A DNA stretch of 48,813 bases from an uncultured Bacilli bacterium (GTDB taxonomy: Bacteria > Bacillota_I > Bacilli_A > RF39 > UBA660): positions 1 to 48,813 of the forward strand of contig CANRBQ010000004.1 in assembly GCA_947628905.1 (NCBI GenBank). The letters run 5' to 3'. Shown here piece after piece: positions 1 through 36,555 of this stretch. The notes beneath the pieces are model-generated. The model was given only the letters and a program-made list of their open reading frames with translations. It was not told where the DNA came from and did not search any database. How positions within the stretch are numbered: position 1 is the stretch's first letter; every line of letters starts with the position of its first letter. The position numbers and the translations under genes are program-made.

Positions 1-1464
1 ACTAAAAAAGTATTATTAGTTTTAGTTGTATTAGTAGCAATAACAACAACTATAGTTTCTTTAAGTTCAAGAGCAAAGTATCAAGTAACTAGTAGTGTTC
101 AAATAGTAAAAGGTAAAGTATCATATCAACCATATGATTTTAAGATAGTAAAAATATACCAAGAAAATGATACAGGAAGTTATGATGAAGTAGATGAAGT
201 ACCAACAACAGAATATGAAATAAATGAAGAAGATAGTAAATGTATGATAGATGATAATACCAAAGATACAGAAGCAATATTAAAAACAATAAATGGTAAT
301 CATACATTTGCTAATCTAAAGAAGATGGATAAGTGTACTGTATATTTTAGTAAAATTCCAACTCCAGAAGATACATTAGCTCAATTAAATAAAGCAAGTG
401 AAAAAGGAACAACAGATGGTTTTACAAATATGGATACAACAGAACATAAAAATAATGAAAAAACAATTATGTATAGTGATGAAGATGATTTAGGAACAAC
501 ATACTATTTTAGAGGCAAAGTAAAAGATAATTGGGTTAAGTTTGGAAAAGAAGGTAATGATGATATATGGTGGCGAATCATCAGAATCAACGGCAATGGT
601 TCAATAAGGATGATATATGCTGGTAAAGGAACTAGTGCTCCAACAAGTGATGGATATTTAAACAATAATAGAACAGGTAGTCAATTACAAATAAGTGGAT
701 ATAATACGTATTCTAATGATAATAAATATGTAGGGTACATGTATGGAACAGATAAAACAGGCAGCGCCACTAAAGAAACCACCCCAACAACTAGTTATGA
801 TCAAGCGCATACTAATAATTTTGATAGTGATATTAAAAAAATATTAGATAATTGGTATAATACTAATCTAAAAACAGAATATGGAAAATACATAGATTCA
901 AATGCTGGATTTTGTAATGATAGAAAAATAGCAACAATAAGTATAAATGACTATGGAACAGAAGGATATGGAAGTTATTCAACAGTATATATAGCAGAAG
1001 ACAGATTAATAAATACAAATTGGAATGCTAATACAAAACATACTCCAACATTCAAGTGTAGTGAAAGATTTAATATATTTTCACTTCCAGGAGCACAAAA
1101 ACCAAATGGAGAAGATTATGGAAATCATAAATTAAGAGCTAACAATGGAACAGGAGAAAATAGTCCAATAGGATTAATAACCATAGATGAAGCAGTATTT
1201 GCAGGAGGATACTATTCTAGACTAGATAATCAATCCGATAATACACAATTTTACTTATATACAGGACAAACTTATTGGACCATGACTCCAGCTTACTTCA
1301 GCATTTACGGCTATGCTACCATATTCATTATACATAAGAATGGCTACCTTGTTGACAATGGTGTGAGCAGTGGGAATGGTGTTCGCCCAGTAATAAATCT
1401 CTCTGCTAATGTTAAATTATCAGGTGAAGGAACATACACCAACCCATATACAATTTCTGATTAA
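1..1464 (+). CDS. 5'-truncated secreted/surface protein, paralog of 34464..35933, with DGR-target-like (CLec/DUF6273-like) C-terminus
   Basis: Frame is open from base 1 (TKKVLLVLVVLVAITTTIVSLSSRAKYQVTSSVQIVKGKVSY), so the true start is upstream of the window, not at 244. Shares the motifs DDLGTTYYFRG, WRIIRINGNGSIRMIY, PIGLIT.DE and WTMTP...GVRPVINL with the paralog. Confidence 0.8.
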   Translation, partial: TKKVLLVLVVLVAITTTIVSLSSRAKYQVTSSVQIVKGKVSYQPYDFKIVKIYQENDTGSYDEVDEVPTTEYEINEEDSKCMIDDNTKDTEAILKTINGNHTFANLKKMDKCTVYFSKIPTPEDTLAQLNKASEKGTTDGFTNMDTTEHKNNEKTIMYSDEDDLGTTYYFRGKVKDNWVKFGKEGNDDIWWRIIRINGNGSIRMIYAGKGTSAPTSDGYLNNNRTGSQLQISGYNTYSNDNKYVGYMYGTDKTGSATKETTPTTSYDQAHTNNFDSDIKKILDNWYNTNLKTEYGKYIDSNAGFCNDRKIATISINDYGTEGYGSYSTVYIAEDRLINTNWNANTKHTPTFKCSERFNIFSLPGAQKPNGEDYGNHKLRANNGTGENSPIGLITIDEAVFAGGYYSRLDNQSDNTQFYLYTGQTYWTMTPAYFSIYGYATIFIIHKNGYLVDNGVSSGNGVRPVINLSANVKLSGEGTYTNPYTISD

Positions 1465-3750: not shown

Positions 3751-6700
3751 TTATTTTTCTCTTACCAAAAATCTATCTAAACTACTAAGCATTTCAGGTA
3801 ATAATAACAAAATTAATATCGTAGAACATAATGTTCCTTCTGAAATAGTTATACAAATTTGAGCTGTAATCGCCGATGCAAAATAACCAACAATTAAAGT
3901 TACTAAAACCAAAATTGAAGCACTAGTTAATATAGTATGTATTGATTTATTATAAGCTTCTAAAACTGAATCTTTAACATCTAATTTCTTTCTAGCTTCT
4001 AAATAATAAGAAGTATAAAGAATTGCATAGTCAATTGTGGCTCCCATTAATATACATTGAACTATTAAAAGAGCTATAAAATAAACAGTTCCACTTTGAA
4101 CAAATAATATTCCCATAGTTAAATACACCGCGGTTTGAATTAATAATACTAAAATAATTGGAATTAATATTGATTTAAAAGTAAATAATACTACAACAAA
4201 AATAAATATAATTGTAAGTATTGTTATTAAATTAAGCTCACTTTGGAATGTTTTACTCATCTCTAAAGCCATCGGAGAATTTCCAATTAAATAAGAATCC
4301 TTTAAAGATAATTCTTTCTTTAAATCTTCCATAAAATTAAATACTTCTTTATCTTCTAAATCAAATGTTGTATTTAACACTAATCTTGAATATTTATCCC
4401 CTACCAAATTTTTATAAGCATCACTTACCATATCTAAAGAAGAAACAATATTATTTCTCATATCTTGATTAATAAAATCATCAAATCTTTCATCTAATAT
4501 TATATCTTTATTTAAATAACTAACAAACTCATCAATAGTTAATCTTAAACTATCATCATAATTATAAACACTTCCATAATAAATATATAATAAATCTATT
4601 AAATTTTTATCTAAATTATTAGATAGATTACTTAATAAATTATATAATTCATCTTTATTATATTTTTTGTTATTAATACTATTATCCATAACTTTTTTAA
4701 GTATTTTAATTTTTGAAACTTTATTTTTATCAAAATTAGCTCCATATGTTTTATTAGGAATAACATCATTTATTAAAAAATTAACAAAATCTTTATATGA
4801 TATTAAAACATTATTCTTTAAATAATTAATTTCATATACTCCATATAAAAGTTTAACTTGTTCTTTATCTAAATTTAATAATTCACTTAAAGCTAATTTA
4901 TCATAAGAAATATTATTTATTACACTATTCATAATACTATTTAAAAATACTAAACTATTTATAGTTTCTGGTGTAATACTCTTTAAATTTTCATCACTTT
5001 GATGTTCTATTATAAAATTAATAAAATGATAAGGACTTATTTTTATATTATCTTTAAAATATAATATATAAATATTATTAGTGATCTCTTCACTTATTCT
5101 TAAAAAATTAGCCATTTCTAAATAATTATAATCTTTATTATTTAAAACACTATCCATAACTCCCAATATAGTCTTTAATTTACTAAAAGATACTTCATCT
5201 AAACTATCAGCAATATTTTGATTATTTAAAATACTATTAATAAATTGATAAGGAGTCAATAAATAATTATCAATATCATCACTACCCCTATTTAAAGTAT
5301 AAATATTTCTAACTAATTCTTCACTAATCCCTAAAAGATTACTCATCTCTTGATAATTAACTTCTTTATTTATTAAATCTATATTACTAAATGTTTTTAA
5401 TTCTTTAATCTCTGCTCTTAAATTATCATCAAACATTTCAGCATAACTATCATTATCAGCTATAACACTTATAAAATTTATAAAATCAGTTAAAGATAAT
5501 TTATAATCTTTAATATTTAAACTTAAATAATATAAATAAAGATTATTTACACTTGAAAGATCAAACTTTAAAAAATCAGCCATTTCCCTACTATTTAAAT
5601 CTCTATTAATAAATTCTTTATTTGTAAAAGTACTAATCATATTTAAATTATTAATAGTATTATTATCTATATTTTTTCCATATTCACTATTTAAAACATA
5701 ATTATTCATAAAATTTATAAACTCTTCTAAAGTCATTTTTGTATTACTATGTAAAGATTCATAAAATATAAATAAATCATTAATATCTGTTTCTTTTATT
5801 CCTAAAACATTAGCAATTTCTTTTTTACTATGTCCTTTATTTAAAGAATTAATATTAGCAAAATTAGATAATTTATTAATATTATTCTTCATATCACTAG
5901 ATATTTGTTCATTCATTTTATTATTGTTATATACATACTGAGGAATAAACTTCAAAAGTTGATCTAAACTTATCAAATTATTTTCTTCATTATAATATTT
6001 ATAAAAGATAATTTTTAAAAGATAATCATCAATATCCATCTGAACATCTAAATCTTTTAATTTATTTTTTAAATCTTCATAACTTAACTTTTCATTAATC
6101 GTATTACCATAACATAATACTTCTTTTACTTTAGGATTATTTATATTTTTACAAACATTTGCCACCTTATCTTCATCTTTATTATTATATATTAATGCTA
6201 ATTCATTATTTTCCCCAAATACTTCTTTTATTTTACTATCTCCAGTATCCGTATAAAGAATCCCTAAATTACCTTTAAAAATATAACTCCCACCTAAAAC
6301 TAAAAGAAAAACCACAATTCCTAAATATCTAAACTTATAAGCTAAATTACCCAAAAATTTTAAATTAAATGTTGGACTTTTCTTTTTAGTTTTAATTATT
6401 AACTTATTAAACATTAAAATAAATGCTGGTAAACAAGTAAAAATTGTAAGTAAACTAAATAGTACTCCTTTAGCTAAAACAAACCCTAAATCCCTTCCAA
6501 TTGCAAAACTCATAAATACTAAAGCTAATAATCCCACGATTGTTGTTATAGAACTACTTGAAATAGATTTAAATGATGCATATAAAGCTTTTTTCATAGC
6601 TTTAATATCATCTTCTTCATATTCTTTTTCCTGTCTATATCTGTTAATTAACATAATAGAATAATCCATTGAAAGAGCTAATTGCAATATCGCACATATC

Positions 6701-7332
6701 GAATTAGTAATACTAGAAATAGAACTAAACATAATATTAGTTCCTTTATTTATTATTACTGCCATACCAATTGCAACTAAAAATAAAATAGGCTCTATAT
6801 AGGAATCACACATAATAATTAATATAATTAAAGCACAAAATATTGCCAAACAAACAATCCAAGAAGGTAATATAGTTTTAAATTCTTCATGAATATCCCC
6901 AGACATATAAATATTATATTCTTTATCTAAATTACTAACTTCTTCATATACATTTTTCGCTAACTTAGAATCTTTATCATCATTAACTGTAATTTCATAT
7001 AAAGTATAATTATCTTTATTATAATCCCCATTATTCTCATATTTAACTTCTATATCATCACTTATATTTTTTAAATTATCATATATTTTATCTTTTTCTT
7101 TATCACTCAAACCTTCAAACATAACATTTAAAGAACTAGTAGCTATATCCCCAAATTCATCATCCATAATATCCATACCAATTCTTGTTTCACTTGTTTT
7201 ATTTAAATATTTTGTAATATCTCTATTAACATTAACCTTAGTTGCTAAAAAGAAACAAATACCCGTAAAAACTATCATAAAAAATAAAATTACTTTTCTA
7301 AAATCTACTAAAAAATCCGTTATTTTTTTCAC
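3751..7332 (-). CDS. MMPL/RND-family transporter with large repeat insertion
   Basis: Two TM clusters with LALSMDYSIML and GATIDYAIL motifs. Confidence 0.85.
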   Translation of the reverse strand: MKKITDFLVDFRKVILFFMIVFTGICFFLATKVNVNRDITKYLNKTSETRIGMDIMDDEFGDIATSSLNVMFEGLSDKEKDKIYDNLKNISDDIEVKYENNGDYNKDNYTLYEITVNDDKDSKLAKNVYEEVSNLDKEYNIYMSGDIHEEFKTILPSWIVCLAIFCALIILIIMCDSYIEPILFLVAIGMAVIINKGTNIMFSSISSITNSICAILQLALSMDYSIMLINRYRQEKEYEEDDIKAMKKALYASFKSISSSSITTIVGLLALVFMSFAIGRDLGFVLAKGVLFSLLTIFTCLPAFILMFNKLIIKTKKKSPTFNLKFLGNLAYKFRYLGIVVFLLVLGGSYIFKGNLGILYTDTGDSKIKEVFGENNELALIYNNKDEDKVANVCKNINNPKVKEVLCYGNTINEKLSYEDLKNKLKDLDVQMDIDDYLLKIIFYKYYNEENNLISLDQLLKFIPQYVYNNNKMNEQISSDMKNNINKLSNFANINSLNKGHSKKEIANVLGIKETDINDLFIFYESLHSNTKMTLEEFINFMNNYVLNSEYGKNIDNNTINNLNMISTFTNKEFINRDLNSREMADFLKFDLSSVNNLYLYYLSLNIKDYKLSLTDFINFISVIADNDSYAEMFDDNLRAEIKELKTFSNIDLINKEVNYQEMSNLLGISEELVRNIYTLNRGSDDIDNYLLTPYQFINSILNNQNIADSLDEVSFSKLKTILGVMDSVLNNKDYNYLEMANFLRISEEITNNIYILYFKDNIKISPYHFINFIIEHQSDENLKSITPETINSLVFLNSIMNSVINNISYDKLALSELLNLDKEQVKLLYGVYEINYLKNNVLISYKDFVNFLINDVIPNKTYGANFDKNKVSKIKILKKVMDNSINNKKYNKDELYNLLSNLSNNLDKNLIDLLYIYYGSVYNYDDSLRLTIDEFVSYLNKDIILDERFDDFINQDMRNNIVSSLDMVSDAYKNLVGDKYSRLVLNTTFDLEDKEVFNFMEDLKKELSLKDSYLIGNSPMALEMSKTFQSELNLITILTIIFIFVVVLFTFKSILIPIILVLLIQTAVYLTMGILFVQSGTVYFIALLIVQCILMGATIDYAILYTSYYLEARKKLDVKDSVLEAYNKSIHTILTSASILVLVTLIVGYFASAITAQICITISEGTLCSTILILLLLPEMLSSLDRFLVREK

Positions 7333-7480
7333 TTTTAATTATCCCCTTTCACACGAAATCTATTCCATTTTACTCTTTTCTATTTAAAAGTTTAACAACA
7401 AATAAACACAAAATGTAAAAATTTAAACAAAAAGTGCAATTTTGTTAAAAATATGTTATAATATATTTCAGGTGATATCC

Positions 7481-8014
7481 ATGAAACTAAAAGGAATAAA
7501 TGCTTCTTCCAAAAAAACTATCAATCTTATAAAAAAAACTTTTATAGAACTTGTAGCCGAAAAAAAAGAAATAAAAAACATTACAGTAACTGAATTAGTA
7601 AAAAGAGCTAATATTACTAGAGGTGCTTTTTATTCCCATTATGATAACATATATGAAATTGCCGAAGAATTTCAAGAAGAAATATTTGAAAATATTTTTG
7701 ATCAAGAAGTATATAAAACTTATAATGACATAAATAAATACTTCGATCATATATTTAATTACTTAGAAACTAATAAAAATATTTATCAAAAACTTTTAAC
7801 TAGTGATGATACCATGCTATTTGTTAAAAGAATAACTAAAAAAATATCAACAACCCTTCTAAAAAATCTTCCTAATAAAAATGAATTAGATATTATATTT
7901 TTTACTGAAGGCACAATAAACCTAATTATTAAATATTTTAAAGGAGAAATAACTGAAGATTTAAAAGATATAAATACTTACATCAAAAATCTAGCTAAAA
8001 CTCTCTTTTATTAA
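7481..8014 (+). CDS. TetR/AcrR-family regulator divergent from the MMPL gene
   Basis: ITVTELVKRANITRGAFYSHY; RBS GGTGA precedes ATG at 7481. Confidence 0.9.
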   Translation: MKLKGINASSKKTINLIKKTFIELVAEKKEIKNITVTELVKRANITRGAFYSHYDNIYEIAEEFQEEIFENIFDQEVYKTYNDINKYFDHIFNYLETNKNIYQKLLTSDDTMLFVKRITKKISTTLLKNLPNKNELDIIFFTEGTINLIIKYFKGEITEDLKDINTYIKNLAKTLFY

Positions 8015-8017
8015 ATA

Positions 8018-8368
8018 TTAATCTATACTTAATCCCAAAGTACCATTATTAATTATTTTTTCTAATATTGGTTCAATTTTATGCAAATCTTTTAATAATC
8101 TTTTATATTCTTTATCATTTTTATACTCTTTTTCATCCAATGCATAAATAATATATCTACTTGCAGCCACAATAAGTAGCATCTTAGCTATATCTCCTAA
8201 TTCTAATCCCTTAAACTTATTCTTCCAATACTTATAAGCCAAATAAGCATTAAAATACCAATAATGAACATCTAAAACTTCATCATAATAAGTATCAACC
8301 AACTCCATTTCTTCTTTCTTATAGCATATAAAATATACTTCCACATTTTCTGTACTACTTTTATACAT
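8018..8368 (-). CDS. hypothetical protein
   Basis: 116-aa ORF with RBS (GAGG) upstream; no motif recognised. Confidence 0.6.
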   Translation of the reverse strand: MYKSSTENVEVYFICYKKEEMELVDTYYDEVLDVHYWYFNAYLAYKYWKNKFKGLELGDIAKMLLIVAASRYIIYALDEKEYKNDKEYKRLLKDLHKIEPILEKIINNGTLGLSID

Positions 8369-8551: not shown

Positions 8552-9175
8552 TTAACTTGTTGCTTGTGTCTCATCAACTTCACTAACAACAAACAATTTC
8601 AAGCTAACCGCTGTATCATTAAGCTCATCAGTTACTTGATTTTCATCTACCCAAACACGAATATATTTAGTTTTAGTAGAATCACCAGCAGCCAAAGTAC
8701 CTTCATCAATTTTATATGCTGTACAATCTGTCGTACAAGCAGAATCCTCTTTATTAGTAATAGAATAAGTATCAGTATTAACAAAAGCTTTAGCCTCTGT
8801 TGCACTATTGCTATCATCACTTATCGCTAACTTTAATTTTGAAACATCTATACTATTTGAATTATCTGCATATATATATATTTTATATTTATTTGGCAAA
8901 TTACTATTATTACCATTAGCATCCGAATTTTTTATAGTATACCCCATTGGATTCTCTAAACCAAGCCCCGCAGTATCACCAATAACTTCTAAAGAATCTA
9001 AACTACTAGCTCCCGTTATAGTAACTTTCAAAGTACCAGCAGTTATAACCTGATCACCAGATGCATGTATATCAAAAAATATGGCATAACTAACACCCAT
9101 TGCCGCCATCGCTACAAGAACAACTGCGATAGCAATTATTGTGGTTTGTTTCTTGATAATATCCTTTACTTTCAT
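8552..9175 (-). CDS. secreted protein with SipW-type (TasA/CalY-like) signal peptide
   Basis: Hydrophobic N-terminus then GVSYAIFFD...VITAGTLKVTI, resembling the SipW-cognate pattern. Confidence 0.6.
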   Translation of the reverse strand: MKVKDIIKKQTTIIAIAVVLVAMAAMGVSYAIFFDIHASGDQVITAGTLKVTITGASSLDSLEVIGDTAGLGLENPMGYTIKNSDANGNNSNLPNKYKIYIYADNSNSIDVSKLKLAISDDSNSATEAKAFVNTDTYSITNKEDSACTTDCTAYKIDEGTLAAGDSTKTKYIRVWVDENQVTDELNDTAVSLKLFVVSEVDETQATS

Positions 9176-9207
9176 ATACTATCACCATAGTATAATAATA
9201 CCATAAA

Positions 9208-9241
9208 AAAGTGATAAATTACAATAGTATTTTATCACTTT
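9208..9241. terminator. 11-bp inverted repeat (terminator overlapping the next promoter)
   Basis: aaagtgataaa ... tttatcacttt. Confidence 0.5.
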
Positions 9242-9243
9242 AT

Positions 9244-9705
9244 TTAAAAATTAATATTTTCTTCAAAAATATAAGCATAATTAACAACATTACCATCTAA
9301 TAAAGGTTCTACATCATAAGTAATTATATCTTGAATTATATAATCCAAAGCTATTGTAAAATAATAATAACCAGCTTTATTTTCTTGTTTAAATTCTGTT
9401 AATTTATAAGTTTTATCATTAATTAATATTTTAGATTTATTAATATCAACATTTTTATTAATACGCAATAAAATTCTAAAACTTTTATTTAAATTATATT
9501 GATTTTTTACTATTAATCTTTCTCCATTATCATTATGTTCTATCATAAAATCTAAATTATACTGATCAATATCAACTACTTTAGCATTACTTATTTTTTT
9601 ATCAAAATTATGCCAAACTGGTATTGATATAAAAACTAATCCTAAAACTACTAATATTTCAATTATTTTACCCTTTATTAGTTTATTAACTACTCGATCA
9701 ACCAA
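9244..9705 (-). CDS. hypothetical membrane-anchored protein
   Basis: TTG start after a GGGGG RBS; N-terminal TM helix. Confidence 0.6.
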   Translation of the reverse strand: MVDRVVNKLIKGKIIEILVVLGLVFISIPVWHNFDKKISNAKVVDIDQYNLDFMIEHNDNGERLIVKNQYNLNKSFRILLRINKNVDINKSKILINDKTYKLTEFKQENKAGYYYFTIALDYIIQDIITYDVEPLLDGNVVNYAYIFEENINF

Positions 9706-9792
9706 AACTTTTACCCCCTAAAATATACAATCATTTCCCCTGATATTTATGTATTATACCATAATCCTAATTTCCTGTCAAATTCATGTCAA

Positions 9793-12612
9793 TTACTTAA
9801 CCACAATATTAACTATTTTCCCTTTAATAACAATTATTTTAACTATATCTTTACCATCTGTATGTTTCTTAACATTTTCATTATTTAAAGCTTTATCTTT
9901 AATACTTTCCTCATCTTCATCTGCTTTAACAGTAATTTCTCCTCTAAGTTTTCCATTAACTTGTACTCCAATTGTAACTTCATCATCAACTGTTTTAGCT
10001 TCATCATATGTTGGCCAATCCATTGCCGCGATATGTTTAGTATAACCAATCTCTTCATTTAATTCTTCTGTAATATGTGGAGCAATTGGATTTAATAAAA
10101 CTAATAATGTTTGATAATCTTTTTTAGTTATTTCTTTTTTATCTTCATAATTATTTGCTAAAATCATCAAACTAGAAACTGCTGTATTATATTTCATTGT
10201 AGCTAAATCATTAGTTACTTTTTTTATTGTTTTATGAATAATATTTTCTAAATCTTTTGAATATTCTTCTTTATCATTAATCTTTTCTTTTAATTTAATT
10301 ACTCTATCTAAAAATCTTTTACAACCTTTAAGCCCTTCATTACTCCATGGAATATCTTTTTCATAATCTCCCATGAACATTTCAAATAGTCTTAAAGTAT
10401 CTGCTCCATATTTATTTACAACATCAACTGGATTAATTCCATTTCCTTTAGATTTACTTATTTTAGTTCCATCTTCCGCTAAAATCATTCCATGAGCAAC
10501 TCTCTTTTTAAATGGTTCTGGTGTAGGTACTAATCCTTGATCATAAAGGAATTGATGCCAAAATCTTGCATAAAGTAAATGTCTTGTTGCATGTTCCATT
10601 CCCCCATTATAATAATCTACCATTCCCCAATACTTAAGAGCATCTTGCCCCACAAATTCTTTATCATTATGAGGATCCATATAGCGTAGCCAGTACCAAC
10701 TAGAACCAGCCCAGTTAGGCATTGTATCAGTCTCTCTTTTGGCCATTTTACCACACTTAGGACAAGGAGTATTAACCCATTCTGAAATATTGGCAAGTGG
10801 TGATTCTCCTGTATCTGTTGGTTCATAATGAGCAACTTTAGGAAGTAAAACTGGAAGTTCTTCTTCTGGTACAGGAACCCAACCACAATCTTCACAATAA
10901 ATCATTGGAATAGGTTCACCCCAGAATCTTTGTCTTGAAAATATCCAATCTTGTAAACGATAATTAACTGTTTTTTTACCAACTTTTTTCTCTTCTAAAA
11001 ATTCAAGCATTCTTTTAATAGCGGCTTCTTTATTAAGACCATTTAAGAAATCTGAATTAATATGAATGCCATCTCCCACCATAGCTCCAGGATTTAAAGC
11101 ATACATAAATGTTTTAGAGTGTAGTTCATCCTTAATTTCTTCTAAAATTGTTTTTTTATCTACCCATTCACAATCAAATTTTTCATCTGCATCTAAAGAC
11201 TGCGAATCTTGTTCATAATTATCTAATTCAAAATATAAACCTGTAGAATTAATATTAAAATATTTATCTTTATTATAAGCATAATAATGATGATTAATAA
11301 TTGGTAAAGTATATTTTAATGTTAAATTCTTATAACCCGTTTCTTCTTTTATTTCTCTAAGAGCACAATCTAATGGACTTTCATTTTCTTTAATTGTTCC
11401 TCCTACAAATAAACGTCCTCCTAATTCATGCCAATTAATAGTTAAATACTTATTTTCTTTTTTATCATAAACAATAGCAACGATAGAATTTTTCTTAACT
11501 TCATCTTTATTAGGAGTACCAGTTTCTTCTGCTAAAACCTGAATAATAGGTATATTAAATTTCTTAGCAAAAGCATAATCTCTCTCATCATGGGCAGGAA
11601 CTGCCATGATTGCTCCAGTTCCATAAGAAGCTAAAACATAATCACTTATATATATTGGTATTTCTTCATTATTAACTGGATTTATTGCTACTAAACCTTC
11701 TAATTTAACTCCAGTTTTATCTTTTGTTACATCAGTTCTTTCTATTTCACTTTTTTGTCTTGCAGCTTCTTGATAAGATTCTACTTCTGAAATATTTTTA
11801 ATTCTATCTTTATATTTTGTAAGAAAATCATGTTCTGGTGACATAACCATAAAAGTTACTCCAAATAAAGTATCACATCTCGTAGTAAATACTTTTAATA
11901 CATCATCAGTATCTTTAAGTTTAAAATCTACTTCAGCCCCAATACTTTTACCTATCCAATTTATTTGAGCTGTTTTAATTTTTTCTTCAAACTCTGTATC
12001 TTTAAGCCCATCAAGTAATCTATCTGCATAATCACTCATTCGTAAAATCCACTGTGATTTTAACTTTTTAGTTACAACTGAACCACATCTCTCACAAACT
12101 CCTCCTGCAGCATCTTCATTAGAAAGTCCTGTTCTACAATTAGGACACCAATTTATTTCTTTTAAAGCTTTATAAGCCATTCCCTTTTTTACAAATTGTA
12201 AAAACTGCCACTGTGTCCATTTATAATATTCTGGATCTGTTGTTGCAAACTCTCTTGACCAATCAAAAGACATACCTAAAGCCTCAATTTGTCCTTTAAA
12301 AGTTTTAATATTTTCCTTTACAGCATCTGCTGGATATATATGATTTTTTATCGCATATTGTTCTGCTGGAGCCCCAAAAGCATCCCATCCCATTGGAAAT
12401 AAAACATTATACCCTTGTAAACGTTTCATTCTAGCCATTGCATCTAATGCTGAATAACTTCTAACATGCCCCACATGTAAACCTGATCCACTTGGATAAG
12501 GAAATTCTACTAATATATAATATTTTTCTTTATTCCCCCCATTTTTAGCTTCAAAATAATGGTTATCAGCCCATATTTTTTGCCATTTTTTTTCTACTTC
12601 TTTTGTATTCAT
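9793..12612 (-). CDS. leuS: leucyl-tRNA synthetase with inserted Nudix domain
   Basis: FPYPSGSGLHVGH, GWDAFG, FTTRCDTLFG, GTGAIMAVPAHDERD, DWIFSRQRFWGEPIP, KISKSKGN. Confidence 0.98.
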   Translation of the reverse strand: MNTKEVEKKWQKIWADNHYFEAKNGGNKEKYYILVEFPYPSGSGLHVGHVRSYSALDAMARMKRLQGYNVLFPMGWDAFGAPAEQYAIKNHIYPADAVKENIKTFKGQIEALGMSFDWSREFATTDPEYYKWTQWQFLQFVKKGMAYKALKEINWCPNCRTGLSNEDAAGGVCERCGSVVTKKLKSQWILRMSDYADRLLDGLKDTEFEEKIKTAQINWIGKSIGAEVDFKLKDTDDVLKVFTTRCDTLFGVTFMVMSPEHDFLTKYKDRIKNISEVESYQEAARQKSEIERTDVTKDKTGVKLEGLVAINPVNNEEIPIYISDYVLASYGTGAIMAVPAHDERDYAFAKKFNIPIIQVLAEETGTPNKDEVKKNSIVAIVYDKKENKYLTINWHELGGRLFVGGTIKENESPLDCALREIKEETGYKNLTLKYTLPIINHHYYAYNKDKYFNINSTGLYFELDNYEQDSQSLDADEKFDCEWVDKKTILEEIKDELHSKTFMYALNPGAMVGDGIHINSDFLNGLNKEAAIKRMLEFLEEKKVGKKTVNYRLQDWIFSRQRFWGEPIPMIYCEDCGWVPVPEEELPVLLPKVAHYEPTDTGESPLANISEWVNTPCPKCGKMAKRETDTMPNWAGSSWYWLRYMDPHNDKEFVGQDALKYWGMVDYYNGGMEHATRHLLYARFWHQFLYDQGLVPTPEPFKKRVAHGMILAEDGTKISKSKGNGINPVDVVNKYGADTLRLFEMFMGDYEKDIPWSNEGLKGCKRFLDRVIKLKEKINDKEEYSKDLENIIHKTIKKVTNDLATMKYNTAVSSLMILANNYEDKKEITKKDYQTLLVLLNPIAPHITEELNEEIGYTKHIAAMDWPTYDEAKTVDDEVTIGVQVNGKLRGEITVKADEDEESIKDKALNNENVKKHTDGKDIVKIIVIKGKIVNIVVK

Positions 12613-23394: not shown

Positions 23395-23724
23395 ATGTAT
23401 ATTAAAACAAATAAACAAAAATATAATATTATAGTAGCTAACTCTTTTCATAAAAGATTAATAGGTTTAATGGGTAAAAAAAACATTAACTATGGTATGC
23501 TTTTTCCTAAATGTAATTCTATTCATACTTATTTTATGAAAGAAAATATTGATATTGTTGGTTTAAATGAAAATAATGAAGTAATATACAAATATGAAAA
23601 CTTAGATAAAAATAGAATAATTAAAATTAAATATGAACCTAAAAAAACAAGCATTTTAGAAATGCCTGCTAATAGTACTAAAAAAATTAAAATTGGAACT
23701 ATTCTTCTTTTCGATAATGATTAA
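23395..23724 (+). CDS. DUF192-family protein
   Basis: ANSFHKRLIGLM, GMLF..CNSIHTYFM...IDIV, ILEMP. Confidence 0.82.
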   Translation: MYIKTNKQKYNIIVANSFHKRLIGLMGKKNINYGMLFPKCNSIHTYFMKENIDIVGLNENNEVIYKYENLDKNRIIKIKYEPKKTSILEMPANSTKKIKIGTILLFDND

Positions 23725-25280
23725 TTATTTAACAAATATTTAATCTTTTCTTTATCAAAAGCCATTAACATTAATCCAAGTTTAGGCCCTTTAGAAATTC
23801 CAAGCAACATATTATATAATATTTGAAAATATCTTTTTTGAGCTTTTTTTAATTCATCATCAGTTAATACTCCATCTTTTACTACATCATATAAAGCTGT
23901 CTGTAAATCATTAGTAGTTTTATAATTATTATCTAATAATAAAATAGTTTTATTTACCCATTCTTTTTCTAAATTATTCAAACTATTATAAAACTCTTCA
24001 TTTCTACATTTAAGTAAATTTATTTGATAGTCTTTTCCATAATCATTAACCCAATTAGAAGCAAGTTCTAATCTTTGATTAAATTCCTTTGTATTAGTGT
24101 CTATTCCTTCTTTATTTAACAAACATTTTAATAAACCTCTATCAAAATTAACAACCGGAAGAAAAGTCGCCAAATAACTAAAATTCGGATTATTTAAATA
24201 TTCTTTTTTTACTCCCGTTAACTCAACAATACTTTTATTTTTTTCATCTATAGTTCCCTCAAAATACATTTTAACCCATCTATCAAACTCACTATAATAT
24301 CTAATAACATCATTATCTAATGCTATATCAAACGCATGCATATTATCAAATCTTGCATAAAACCACCATATAATATTTTTATCATATACTTTTAATAAAT
24401 CTGATATAGTAAGAACATTTCCTGTTGACGAAGACATTTTTGCTCCTCCTCCTTTAATCCCAATAAAATTATAAGGAATATAAATTGGAGGCTCATAATT
24501 AAATATTTCTTTTGCAACCCTTTCTGATACTGCTTTACTTCCATTAACTGCCGAATGATCTATACCACCTGTTTCAAAAGTAACATTTTCTATCATCCAA
24601 CGCATTGGCCAATCAACTTTCCATTGCAATTTAACATTTGTTGCATTATTAATATTTAATTTACTTTCATACCCACATTTGCAAATATAACTAACTTCTC
24701 CTGTTTTAGAATCATAATTAATAATTGTCGTAGAATCTTTTTTACAATTATGACAATAAATACTTATCGGAAAATAATTTTTTCTTTCTTCTTCAGTTGC
24801 CTCTTGCGTTCTAAAATCATCTATAATATCAAATATTCTATCTCTATTATCCATAGCAATTTTAATATATTTATTATATCTTCCACTTTGATATTCTTTA
24901 GCCTGATAAATACACTCTACTTCCACATCCATTGCTTTTAATTCCTTCAAAAATCTATTTTCCATATATTGCGCATAAGACTCATTATCTGTAAATGGAC
25001 TAGGTATTTCTGTATAAGGCATACCAATATATTTCTCATAACTAATTGGAATATTACCAGGAACTTTTCTAAATCTATCAAATTCATCAAAAGACAAAAT
25101 ATATCTAACCTTTTTCCCTAAATTTCTCAATTCTTTAGCAACAAGATAAGGAGTTGCAATCTCCCTAAAATTTCCAATATGCACTAATCCACTAGGACTT
25201 ACTCCACTTGCCACTGTATAAACTTTTTCATTTGGTCTTTCTTGAATAATTTTTAAAGCAACTTCTTTCGCCCAATTCAT
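23721..25280 (-). CDS. lysK: class I lysyl-tRNA synthetase
   Basis: ASGVSPSGLVHIGNFRE, KLQWKVDWPMRW, KMSSSTGN, GPKLG; likely start ATG 25280 after AAAGGA. Confidence 0.95.
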   Translation of the reverse strand: MNWAKEVALKIIQERPNEKVYTVASGVSPSGLVHIGNFREIATPYLVAKELRNLGKKVRYILSFDEFDRFRKVPGNIPISYEKYIGMPYTEIPSPFTDNESYAQYMENRFLKELKAMDVEVECIYQAKEYQSGRYNKYIKIAMDNRDRIFDIIDDFRTQEATEEERKNYFPISIYCHNCKKDSTTIINYDSKTGEVSYICKCGYESKLNINNATNVKLQWKVDWPMRWMIENVTFETGGIDHSAVNGSKAVSERVAKEIFNYEPPIYIPYNFIGIKGGGAKMSSSTGNVLTISDLLKVYDKNIIWWFYARFDNMHAFDIALDNDVIRYYSEFDRWVKMYFEGTIDEKNKSIVELTGVKKEYLNNPNFSYLATFLPVVNFDRGLLKCLLNKEGIDTNTKEFNQRLELASNWVNDYGKDYQINLLKCRNEEFYNSLNNLEKEWVNKTILLLDNNYKTTNDLQTALYDVVKDGVLTDDELKKAQKRYFQILYNMLLGISKGPKLGLMLMAFDKEKIKYLLNN

Positions 25281-25300
25281 TTTTACCATTCCTTTCAATT

Positions 25301-34463: not shown

Positions 34464-35933
34464 TTATTGAACTATATATGGATTAGTGTATGTACCATCA
34501 CCTGATAATTTCACATTAGCAGAGAGGTTTATCACAGGACGAGCACCATCAGTATTATACATAGCATCAGGTTCAATACCATAATTCAGACAAAAAACCT
34601 CTGCATATACACTTAACCTATATGGAGACATAGTCCAACTACCAGCGTTTGTATATAAGTAAAATTTTCTATTATTTGTTGAATCATCAGATTTGCGTCG
34701 ATAACCTCCTGCAAATACTACTTCATCTGCTGTTATCAAACCAATTGGGCTATTATCTCCTGTTCCATTGTTAGCTCTTAATTTATGATTTCCATAGTCA
34801 CTTCCATCTAGTTTTTGTGCTCCTGGAAGTGTAAATGTGTCATTTATTTGACTACATTTAAACGTTGGAGTATTTTTTTCATTTGCTTCTCCATTTGAGT
34901 TTGAAAATCTACTCATTGGGGCATAAGCAGTTTCTTCTTTTTTATATCCTTTTGCTGTATCATCTTTCCACCATTGATTTGGAGTTGTATTAATTTGTCT
35001 ATCATTGCAAAATCCAGCATTTGAATCTATATATTCTTCATATTCTGCTTTTAGATTTGAACTATACCAGCTATCTAATTTTTTCTTTATTGTACTATCA
35101 TTTTCATTTTTGTGAGTGTCCTCATATTTACTTGATCCTGATGTTCCATACATATATCCTACATAAATATTATCTGAAGAATAAGTTGAATTATATGAAA
35201 CATTCTGTAAAGTACTTTTATATCCATTATTATTTAAATATCCATCATCTGTTGGGATAGTAGTTCCAGTTCCAGTATATATCATTCTTATTGAACCATT
35301 ACCATTTATTCGAATAATTCGCCACCATATGTCCTCACTTCCTACTTTTCCAAACTTTACCCAATTGTCTTTTACTCTTCCTCTAAAATAGTATGTTGTT
35401 CCTAAATCATCTTCATCACTATATAATATAGACTTGTCATTTTCCCCTATATGTTCCTCAACATCCATATCTGTAAAACCGTCTTTATTACCTTCCTCTA
35501 TTGTTCTATTTGCTAATAGTTGTTCTCTAGCGTATACGTACATATCTAAATAAACATAACATTTAGTACCTTTTTTAGTTATACTTATGCTTACTTTTCC
35601 ATCTTTATATTCCATTGGTATATCTTTATGTTGTATATTATCTCCTGGAATTGTACAGTAACTTTTTTCTTTATTTAATTCATAACTCCCTTTTGGTACT
35701 TCATCAGTTGGATTATATGTCTCACTATATTCAGATTCTTGTACTTTTAAAGCTACAACATTTAAATCTGCTAAACTATAACTAACTTTTCCTTTAACTA
35801 TTTGAATATTACTTGTTACATGATATTTTGCTCTACTATTTGTTATATATATTATTCCCATTAACAATACTAATATTGTTATAACTAATACTATTTTCTT
35901 TTTTCTTCCTTTACTTAACTTCTCTATCCTCAT
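34464..35933 (-). CDS. secreted/surface protein, paralog of 1..1464
   Basis: N-terminal TM/signal helix plus SRAKY..IVKGKVSY; same core motifs; C-terminus WTMSP...GARPVINLSANVKLSGDGTYTNPY. Confidence 0.85.
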   Translation of the reverse strand: MRIEKLSKGRKKKIVLVITILVLLMGIIYITNSRAKYHVTSNIQIVKGKVSYSLADLNVVALKVQESEYSETYNPTDEVPKGSYELNKEKSYCTIPGDNIQHKDIPMEYKDGKVSISITKKGTKCYVYLDMYVYAREQLLANRTIEEGNKDGFTDMDVEEHIGENDKSILYSDEDDLGTTYYFRGRVKDNWVKFGKVGSEDIWWRIIRINGNGSIRMIYTGTGTTIPTDDGYLNNNGYKSTLQNVSYNSTYSSDNIYVGYMYGTSGSSKYEDTHKNENDSTIKKKLDSWYSSNLKAEYEEYIDSNAGFCNDRQINTTPNQWWKDDTAKGYKKEETAYAPMSRFSNSNGEANEKNTPTFKCSQINDTFTLPGAQKLDGSDYGNHKLRANNGTGDNSPIGLITADEVVFAGGYRRKSDDSTNNRKFYLYTNAGSWTMSPYRLSVYAEVFCLNYGIEPDAMYNTDGARPVINLSANVKLSGDGTYTNPYIVQ

Positions 35934-36099: not shown

Positions 36100-36555
36100 T
36101 TGGAATATGGTATTAAAATGAAAGAAATAAGATTAGAAAAGAAAACTAGCCAAAAAGAAATTGCAAATTACTTAGGTATATCCCCAATAACTTATAGTCA
36201 TTATGAAACACAAGATACAACAATACCTATTAAACATTTATATAATTTTTGCAATTATTTTAATAGTTCAATTAATTATATATTTAGTTTTTCAAATATA
36301 AAATATGGAAAATATAATAACGAAAAAATTAATAAAACAATTTCTGGCGAACGACTAAAAAATTTTAGAAAAGAAAACAAACTGACTCAGAGTAAACTTG
36401 CCAAAACCCTAAATACTGATAAAACCGTAATATGCAATTATGAAAAAGGCAAAAATATTATTGCTACCCCATTTCTATATTCTTTATGTAAAAACTATAA
36501 AATATCAGCTGATTATCTTTTAGGAAGAACAGACTTTCCTAAATATTTAAAATAA
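36100..36555 (+). CDS. tandem (double) XRE HTH regulator
   Basis: Two HTH_3-like repeats; TTG start after AGGTGA; paralog of 48217..48672. Confidence 0.88.
   Translation: MEYGIKMKEIRLEKKTSQKEIANYLGISPITYSHYETQDTTIPIKHLYNFCNYFNSSINYIFSFSNIKYGKYNNEKINKTISGERLKNFRKENKLTQSKLAKTLNTDKTVICNYEKGKNIIATPFLYSLCKNYKISADYLLGRTDFPKYLK

Follow-up and report, generated by a model that had tools for sequence, protein, structure and literature searches.

A template-derived variable region in a DUF6273-like surface protein of an uncultured RF39 bacterium, and the multi-template retroelements of its relatives

In the diversity-generating retroelement (DGR) of Bordetella phage BPP-1, which acts on the protein Mtd, a template repeat (TR) RNA whose downstream spacer is structured works with a reverse transcriptase (RT) and an Avd-like protein; mutagenesis is adenine-specific and falls on AAY codons, and a G/C-rich 3' end is common to the TR and the variable region (VR) of the target. 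In DUF6273, described as a C-lectin-like domain targeted by DGRs, the VR lies at the C-terminus (PMC10743442, PMC11792537, bioRxiv 10.1101/2024.10.15.618418), and some phages keep DUF6273 targets but lack a DGR (bioRxiv 10.1101/2024.10.15.618418). The TvpA family of Treponema denticola comprises multi-copy surface proteins, some of them targets far from the RT/TR core, and orphan targets, recognised by comparing their VR with the TR of another strain, persist in isolates after the loss of RT and TR (PMC4891356). The DGR of Stenotrophomonas sp. SKA14 has two TRs and six VRs (PMC6642488). Here we describe a stretch of 48,813 nucleotides (nt) from an uncultured Bacilli bacterium of the RF39 lineage (contig CANRBQ010000004.1 of assembly GCA_947628905.1), hereafter the window. 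Its gene 1 (1-1464, plus strand, frame 1, with the N-terminus cut by the contig start and the stop at 1464), a member of a surface-protein family, carries, at the C-terminal end of a DUF6273-like domain in a cellular protein family, a VR of the DGR type that has probably ceased to be serviced. The relatives, rather than the window, have the more unusual architecture.

An earlier note on the window had drawn attention to an excess of C-ending codons near the 3' end of gene 1, and its count, peptide and codon list were all reproduced. Third bases of the 36 codons from 1279 to 1386 are C in 13, T in 16, G in 4 and A in 3, against 1 C-ending codon among the first 80 of the gene and a background of 2.25% over the 14,790 codons in all open reading frames (ORFs) of the window. 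When a 36-codon frame was slid along every ORF of the window, 1279-1386 was the single maximum (13) and nowhere else did the count reach 8. The binomial probability of at least 13 C-ending codons in 36 at the window background is 5e-13, and the anomaly is far beyond chance. Local G+C content (GC) of the segment is 0.44 against about 0.26, in a window of ~25% GC. Every codon aligned to a template Asn is NNY; those of any other form (ATA, ATA, AAG, GTG, GGG and CCA) stand at scaffold positions. A weaker rise in third-position C (C3) at 487-684 of gene 1 arises because a WWRIIRING motif uses ATC and CGA family-wide. This motif (window 565-600; tgg tgg cga atc atc aga atc aac ggc) is invariant across the family, with 89 copies in the loci described below; ATC occupies its two Ile codons in ~42% of copies, alongside CGA, despite very low family C3, and its codons gave no template match.

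Alignment with TRs of related genomes, taken from 24 genomes at no more than 10 kb from a family member, placed the template-homologous segment, the equivalent of a VR and rich in C3 and NNY codons, at 1285-1389 (plus strand, ACT CCA to CGC CCA). The 22 non-coding TR units found in related gut genomes read SPYNFN..NANVFxVNxNGNLNNNNVNNTNGVRP, to which the template pattern given in the earlier note is an almost literal fit, and the homology of the gene 1 segment extends to synonymous codons. To gauge ancestry, the gene 1 peptide was held fixed, codons were redrawn from window usage in 20,000 runs, and the last 75 nt were compared with one of these TRs (L003+5788). The real segment matches this TR at 50 of 75 nt (expected 36.0±1.6) and at 17 of 25 third positions (expected 5.5±1.3), and neither value was reached in any of the 20,000 simulations. 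Codons that make up only 1.6-7% of their synonymous families in the window (TTC, GGC, GTG and CGC) coincide with template positions in gene 1, and the 3' end of the segment, CGCCCAGTAATAAATCT, is identical to the 3' end of TR-matching VRs. Since the match at synonymous sites far exceeds chance, 1285-1389 is, on sequence comparison, a VR by descent from a DGR template.

A paralogue within the window (P0010; 34464-35933, minus strand), 55% identical to gene 1 by sequence comparison, provides an internal negative control. Its VR-equivalent segment (34530-34637, minus strand) is without template signal: it has no C-ending codon among 36, ends in GGTGCTCGTCCTGTG, and matches the TR at 30 nt where 29.4 are expected (p=0.46), with 30 mismatched and 31 matched non-A positions. 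The poorer fit of this paralogue to the template pattern, which had also been remarked on, is thus a match at chance level.

Homology searches with gene 1 returned 5,296 proteins, the best 70% identical; the closest locus in a species-representative genome collection is 56% identical. Neither the gene 1 protein nor the paralogue exceeds any Pfam threshold. Gene 1 matches DUF6273 (PF19789) at E=0.012 and 15.9 bits (cutoff 23.5), with residues 414-468 aligned to positions 120-171 of the 172-position profile, and 48 of the 71 aligned family members match the same profile at E<=1 (best 8.6e-6). The gene 1 domain is a divergent relative of DUF6273, a member below the threshold. AlphaFold2, run with 71 homologues, gave a confident model (predicted local distance difference test 89.4, predicted template modelling score 0.83) that has a helix at residues 2-23, a beta-sandwich and a large domain that, in the model, ends in the beta-strands bearing the anomalous segment. 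The N-terminal helix is a predicted membrane helix, and the protein would be membrane-anchored.

In Foldseek searches of BFVD, the model matched phage DUF6273 proteins at E values of 1.1e-5, 6.5e-5 and onward to 1e-2, with probabilities up to 1.00; one of them, A0A8S5MNV4, has a target-normalised template modelling (TM) score of 0.59 and a probability of 1.00. Searches of the PDB returned nothing at E<=0.001, and the sequence profile of the gene 1 family matched nothing there. The weak PDB matches (E 0.4-4) were enriched in C-type lectin-like domains (CTLDs), including the mannose receptor CTLD, the Legionella Lcl C-terminal domain (8q4e), CD94, CD23 and MBP. A C-type lectin fold had been proposed for the tip of gene 1, to be checked by structure prediction; the prediction gave a structural match to DUF6273 proteins but no significant match to a solved C-type lectin. 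The C-lectin-like fold of the gene 1 domain would therefore rest on the DUF6273 literature, and as that literature places the VR at the C-terminus, the anomaly lies where DGRs act in this domain family. In gut phages, the DUF6273 targets (tentaclins and the Mtd-like proteins of nd4 and nd12; Faecalibacterium prophages Lelie, CP11, Roos and Pioen; Toutatisvirus) likewise have their VR at the C-terminal end of DUF6273, and phage DUF6273 proteins match the gene 1 model in predicted structure. They are tail or head proteins, whereas the gene 1 family is cellular, multi-copy, chromosomal and, by prediction, membrane-anchored; gene 1 also falls below the Pfam threshold (15.9 against 23.5 bits), and the TRs and RT compared with it here are those of relatives.

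To place gene 1 among its relatives, one genome per species was scanned, giving 78 loci from gut metagenome-assembled genomes (MAGs) labelled uncultured Bacilli, uncultured Tenericutes UMGS1172, Mycoplasma sp. CAG:776 and similar. Many paralogues occur per genome, with 14 loci in Lapin-030__bin19 alone, and their VR-equivalent segments fall in two groups, with 13-18 and 0-6 C-ending codons of ~40. A motif search over the loci found a single RT, in L017, where a cassette at 9674-11562, preceded by a small MutS-domain-I-like ORF, comprises a bAvd-like protein (E 1.5e-9; 38.8 bits, slightly below the 40-bit cutoff) and the RT (RVT_1, E 1.5e-21; ORF 10450-11559). No TR was co-located within the sampled flanks. 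The family member nearest this cassette (L017:5045-6580) is split into ORFs 5045-5368 and 5432-6580; in its VR the 3' end, GGCATCCGTCCT, is non-canonical and 18 mismatches fall at non-A positions, so that this copy looks degraded. Between MAGs, the RT of the clade (~100 clusters at about 75-86% identity) is far more conserved than its target proteins, at 35-58%, which suggests strong constraint on the RT or its horizontal spread.

Counting of in-frame AAC codons exposed non-coding TR copies in these loci, which translate as SPYNFNGSNANVFYVNSNGNLNNNNVNNTNGVRP and then run into stops; ungapped, A-tolerant sliding of VRs over the loci gave one TR only. Fifteen TR units are marked by the motif GGTGTGCGCCCAATATCC, and a hidden Markov model (HMM) of the unit brought the total to 22, one of them (in L006) cut by a contig end. 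They lie at L027:6799-9352 (five units), L003:5632-6265 and 9145-9447, L033:11748-12370, L016:7372-8545, L045:675-2336 and L048:11653-11976, with three further units in L056 and others in L043, L062 and L069. Each unit is ~300 nt long and has a TATAAT box and a 5' element, GGTTAATCT, that pairs with a 3' AGATTAAYC and so encloses the template; the 3' part has a TATCC/GGATA stem at the template 3' end, internal hairpins and a terminator hairpin. The layout is GGTTAATCT, the TR, CGYCCAATATCC and then a spacer with GGATAC...AGATTAAYC. In an alignment of 21 units (for example L027:8401-8748), 22 of the 53 predicted pairs show compensatory changes, and L062 has TACCC/GGGTA for the stem. Two units (L069:7578-7889 and L006:1-221) have a G+C-rich, CCTGTCAAGCGCCCGACAGG-like hairpin in place of GGTGTGCGCCCA before AATATCC. 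No Rfam family matches the units, each of which looks like an independent structured RNA gene. A PD-(D/E)XK transposase-family gene (PF12784) lies within the L027 TR array (7113-8051, minus strand) and also near another family locus (L096, from 14113 onward); this transposase might be linked to the spread of TR units.

TRs and VRs from the same genome behave, as far as their sequences go, as DGR pairs should. The VR of L073 differs from TR L003+5788 at 16 positions of the A type and 1 non-A position, that of L075 from TR L027+8568 at 13 and 4, and that of L077 from TR L033-9569 at 14 and 5. P0009, a protein 58% identical to gene 1 and one of two top homologues with retrievable DNA, differs from TR L003+5788 over the 3' 75 nt by 11 A-type and 1 non-A changes. 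The relatives would share with BPP-1 the structured spacer, the RT with an Avd-like protein, the adenine-specific mutagenesis of AAY codons and the G/C-rich 3' end. They differ from it in having multiple stand-alone TR RNA genes away from the sole RT locus found, features known from the relatives and not from the window genome: the TR units adjoin family members, and the only RT-bAvd cassette seen is on another contig. Stenotrophomonas sp. SKA14 is alike in having several templates and targets per genome, and Lapin-030__bin19 differs from it in having at least 7 TR units in two arrays, ~10 TR-matching paralogous VRs and an RT at a third locus. Two large DGR surveys that we searched make no mention of multiple TRs or of these lineages, and full-text searches of one literature library did not find an architecture of TR arrays with a separate RT-bAvd locus described. 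In these small-genome gut Bacilli, a large membrane-anchored DUF6273 family seems to be diversified by arrays of independent TR-RNA genes.

Against this background, the gene 1 segment is out of register with every sampled template. It was compared with 20 TRs from at least six related genomes, all of other species than that of the window. Against the best of them, gene 1 has 15 mismatches and 16 matches at 31 adenines, 21 mismatches and 50 matches at 71 other positions, and a 3-nt gap; this adenine bias is not significant (Fisher p=0.055), while well-fitting VRs give 1e-5 to 1e-10. Invariant non-A template positions are retained at 13 of 17 in gene 1, at 16-17 in TR-matching VRs and at 8 in the paralogue. 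In the 3' 75 nt of the gene 1 segment, 12 of the 15 non-A mismatches are GC-to-AT and none is AT-to-GC, and these GC-to-AT changes fall at positions fixed in the sampled TRs. The TR-unit HMM recovers ~40 VRs of the relatives, partly diverged ones included, and did not report the VR of gene 1. An adaptation of templates to low host GC was considered and rejected: TRs keep a GTG/TTC/GGC/CTC scaffold in genomes of 23-31% GC, so a low-GC host alone predicts no AT-shifted template, and a 23%-GC relative keeps canonical VRs.

At the 5' boundary (1276-1290, plus strand) gene 1 has TGGACCATGACTCCA where TR-matching VRs of the relatives almost always have TGGACNATGTCTCCG, with 2 differences in the first 6 nt of the template (ACTCCA against TCTCCG; ATGACTCCA against ATGTCTCCG in VRs that fit a TR). 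The 3' boundary (1378-1400, plus strand) reads GGTGTTCGCCCAGTAATAAATCT, against GGTGTGCGCCCAGTAATAAATCT in the TR-matching VRs and GGTGTGCGCCCAATATCC in the TRs; there is one G-to-T difference (GTT for GTG), and the rare CGC codon is kept. The homology ends of gene 1 are thus ACTCCA and GGTGTTCGCCCA, against TCTCCG and GGTGTGCGCCCA in TR-matching VRs. The single 3' mismatch also occurs in L038, a VR that is rich in C3 and comes from a genome with a DGR.

The earlier note had taken gene 1 for a currently targeted remote VR. The 21 non-A mismatches, the 3-nt gap, the lack of significant adenine bias, the GC-to-AT skew, the altered 5' end and the HMM miss argue against this, and we lean slightly towards 1285-1389 being an orphaned or rarely refreshed VR, a reading that follows from the GC-to-AT changes and altered 5' homology that put the copy out of register with the templates. 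By analogy with the BPP-1 DGR, the tip of the gene 1 DUF6273/C-lectin-like domain would have been written by mutagenic retrohoming from a TR RNA. As the relatives suggest, an RT-bAvd complex would copy small structured TR-RNA genes and make its errors at adenines, and the complementary DNA would replace the stretch between TCTCCG and GGTGTGCGCCCA and turn AAY codons into NNY. The gene 1 copy would then have drifted under AT pressure without rewriting, acquiring GC-to-AT changes where the templates are fixed and within the 5' homology; we infer that it diverged by decay once homing had last taken place. Like the TvpA proteins of T. denticola, the gene 1 family consists of multi-copy surface proteins with remote or remnant targets, although the domain families differ. 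In the orphan VR of T. denticola, 19 of 21 differences are at adenines (PMC4891356), against 15 of 36 in gene 1, and the gene 1 copy would therefore be either more decayed or the product of a different template. Partly diverged VRs also stand beside TR-matching ones in DGR-bearing relatives such as Lapin-022__bin92 (L003, L002, L076 and L001).

Several observations weigh against an orphaned or rarely refreshed copy. The 13 NNC codons persist in a genome with 2.25% C3, so the last templating would be recent or continuing at low frequency. The TRs come from the vicinity of family members in 24 genomes, none of the same species as the window. P0001, 70% identical to gene 1, has a near-template VR (NGNLNNNDVNNA) with Ile where the window has ATA and the sampled TRs have GTG; this hints at a lineage-specific TR, by which some of the apparent decay sites would be templated. 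The assembly probably represents an incomplete MAG, and short contigs carry most RT loci of the clade. As RT and TRs of the relatives lie apart from most targets, their absence from one 48.8-kb contig says little.

That absence itself, which the earlier note had stated, was upheld. No TR-like copy was found in the window by blastn (word size 7), by an 18-mer search allowing 3 mismatches or with the TR-unit HMM, and no RT or Avd by Pfam scan, RT-motif regular expression or tblastn with the RT and bAvd of a relative. Beyond the window, none of the best 120 homologues of the clade RT (54-100% identical) is attributable to the source assembly, a weak and indirect observation. One would be expected among them because P0013, apparently of the same assembly, is recoverable: this protein, encoded outside the window, shares a near-identical N-terminal region of 115 residues with gene 1 and is probably a third paralogue from that assembly. 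A scan of metagenome contigs with the VR in A-or-same IUPAC code followed by ATATCC gave 17 matches, all poly-A runs (every degenerate code admits A). A scan of IMG/VR for the TR 3' motif found no TR unit of the relatives' type, which fits a cellular rather than a phage system.

The alternative that survives best, and one that we regard as doubtful yet worth serious attention, is that gene 1 is an active remote target, with an RT-bAvd cassette and a TR particular to its lineage (one that has Ile codons and more AAT than AAC) on other contigs still rewriting 1285-1389. The strength of the C3/NNY signature at 2.25% background C3, the NNY codons at all template-Asn positions, the nearly intact 3' boundary and the separate RT and TR loci of the relatives all agree with it, as do P0001, which shares the scaffold Ile yet has a VR that looks freshly templated, and the close homologues P0009 and P0004, which are TR-matching, C3-rich targets. 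It would, however, need a TR that differs at ~12 positions invariant in all sampled TRs, that of the 23%-GC genome included, and it sits poorly with the altered 5' homology, the lack of adenine bias against available TRs and the failure to attribute any of the 120 RT homologues to the source assembly. The gene 1 VR also holds an AAG, a codon that DGR templates avoid through their use of AAY, since it can mutate to stop. A fuller version, in which the organism of the window has a dispersed network of one RT-bAvd locus, many stand-alone TR-RNA genes and at least 10 surface-protein targets, with a lineage-specific AT-shifted template still servicing gene 1, seems to us a little more doubtful again. 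Under such a network the apparent decay would be a template variant as yet unsampled, and the ATA Ile codons, which stand at beta-strand positions, would diversify among hydrophobic residues only.

Recent gain of the C-terminal segment by recombination or gene conversion from a DGR-diversified paralogue or foreign homologue, with gene 1 itself perhaps never a homing target here, is improbable. The family is mosaic, with near-identical N-terminal regions in proteins that are 51-55% identical (gene 1 against P0013 and P0012), the 3' flank of gene 1 is 85% identical to that of the paralogue while the VR is unalignable, and contig breaks coincide with family members. No donor sequence came to light, however, the best homologue of gene 1 is just 70% identical, and the GC-to-AT drift implies some time of residence in an AT-rich genome; such an import would also account for the origin of the segment and not for its present state, and it overlaps with the orphaned or rarely refreshed copy that we prefer. 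That the C-rich codons arose with no DGR, by chance, local codon-usage selection or an overlapping feature, as the template-less ATC/CGA codons of the WWRIIRING motif might suggest, is extremely improbable given the binomial probability and a paralogue that encodes the same fold and shows nothing, and is effectively refuted by the degree of nucleotide match to non-coding TRs from other genomes, which 0 of 20,000 simulations reached.

As a calibration, a codon-composition anomaly flags DGR-written DNA; NNC or NNY richness alone cannot separate a live target from a template-less one, for which the template is required. If 1285-1389 is a relic, it is a dated snapshot of the rate at which a templated VR melts in a 25%-GC genome; if live, it extends the multi-template DGR network to another lineage.

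Divergent from the paralogue in the window lies a tandem helix-turn-helix (HTH) regulator of the XRE type (36100-36555, plus strand), with Pfam HTH_3/HTH_19 matched twice. The pairing of a family member with a divergent tandem-HTH regulator also occurs in L027 (9353-9802), L017 (6882-7352) and L098 (1488-1943). A Pfam HTH scan placed a second such regulator at the right contig end (48217-48672, minus strand), and another family member is therefore expected just beyond the window. Family copies probably lie at both ends of the contig, with the assembly breaking at these repeats. Two aminoacyl-tRNA synthetases of the window are also unusual. The leucyl-tRNA synthetase ORF (9793-12612, minus strand, 939 aa) has a NUDIX match (E 2.9e-12) at residues 377-494, an unusual insertion directly after the editing domain. 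The lysyl-tRNA synthetase (23721-25298, minus strand) is of the class I type (PF01921, E 4e-113), which is uncommon among Bacilli-like genomes.

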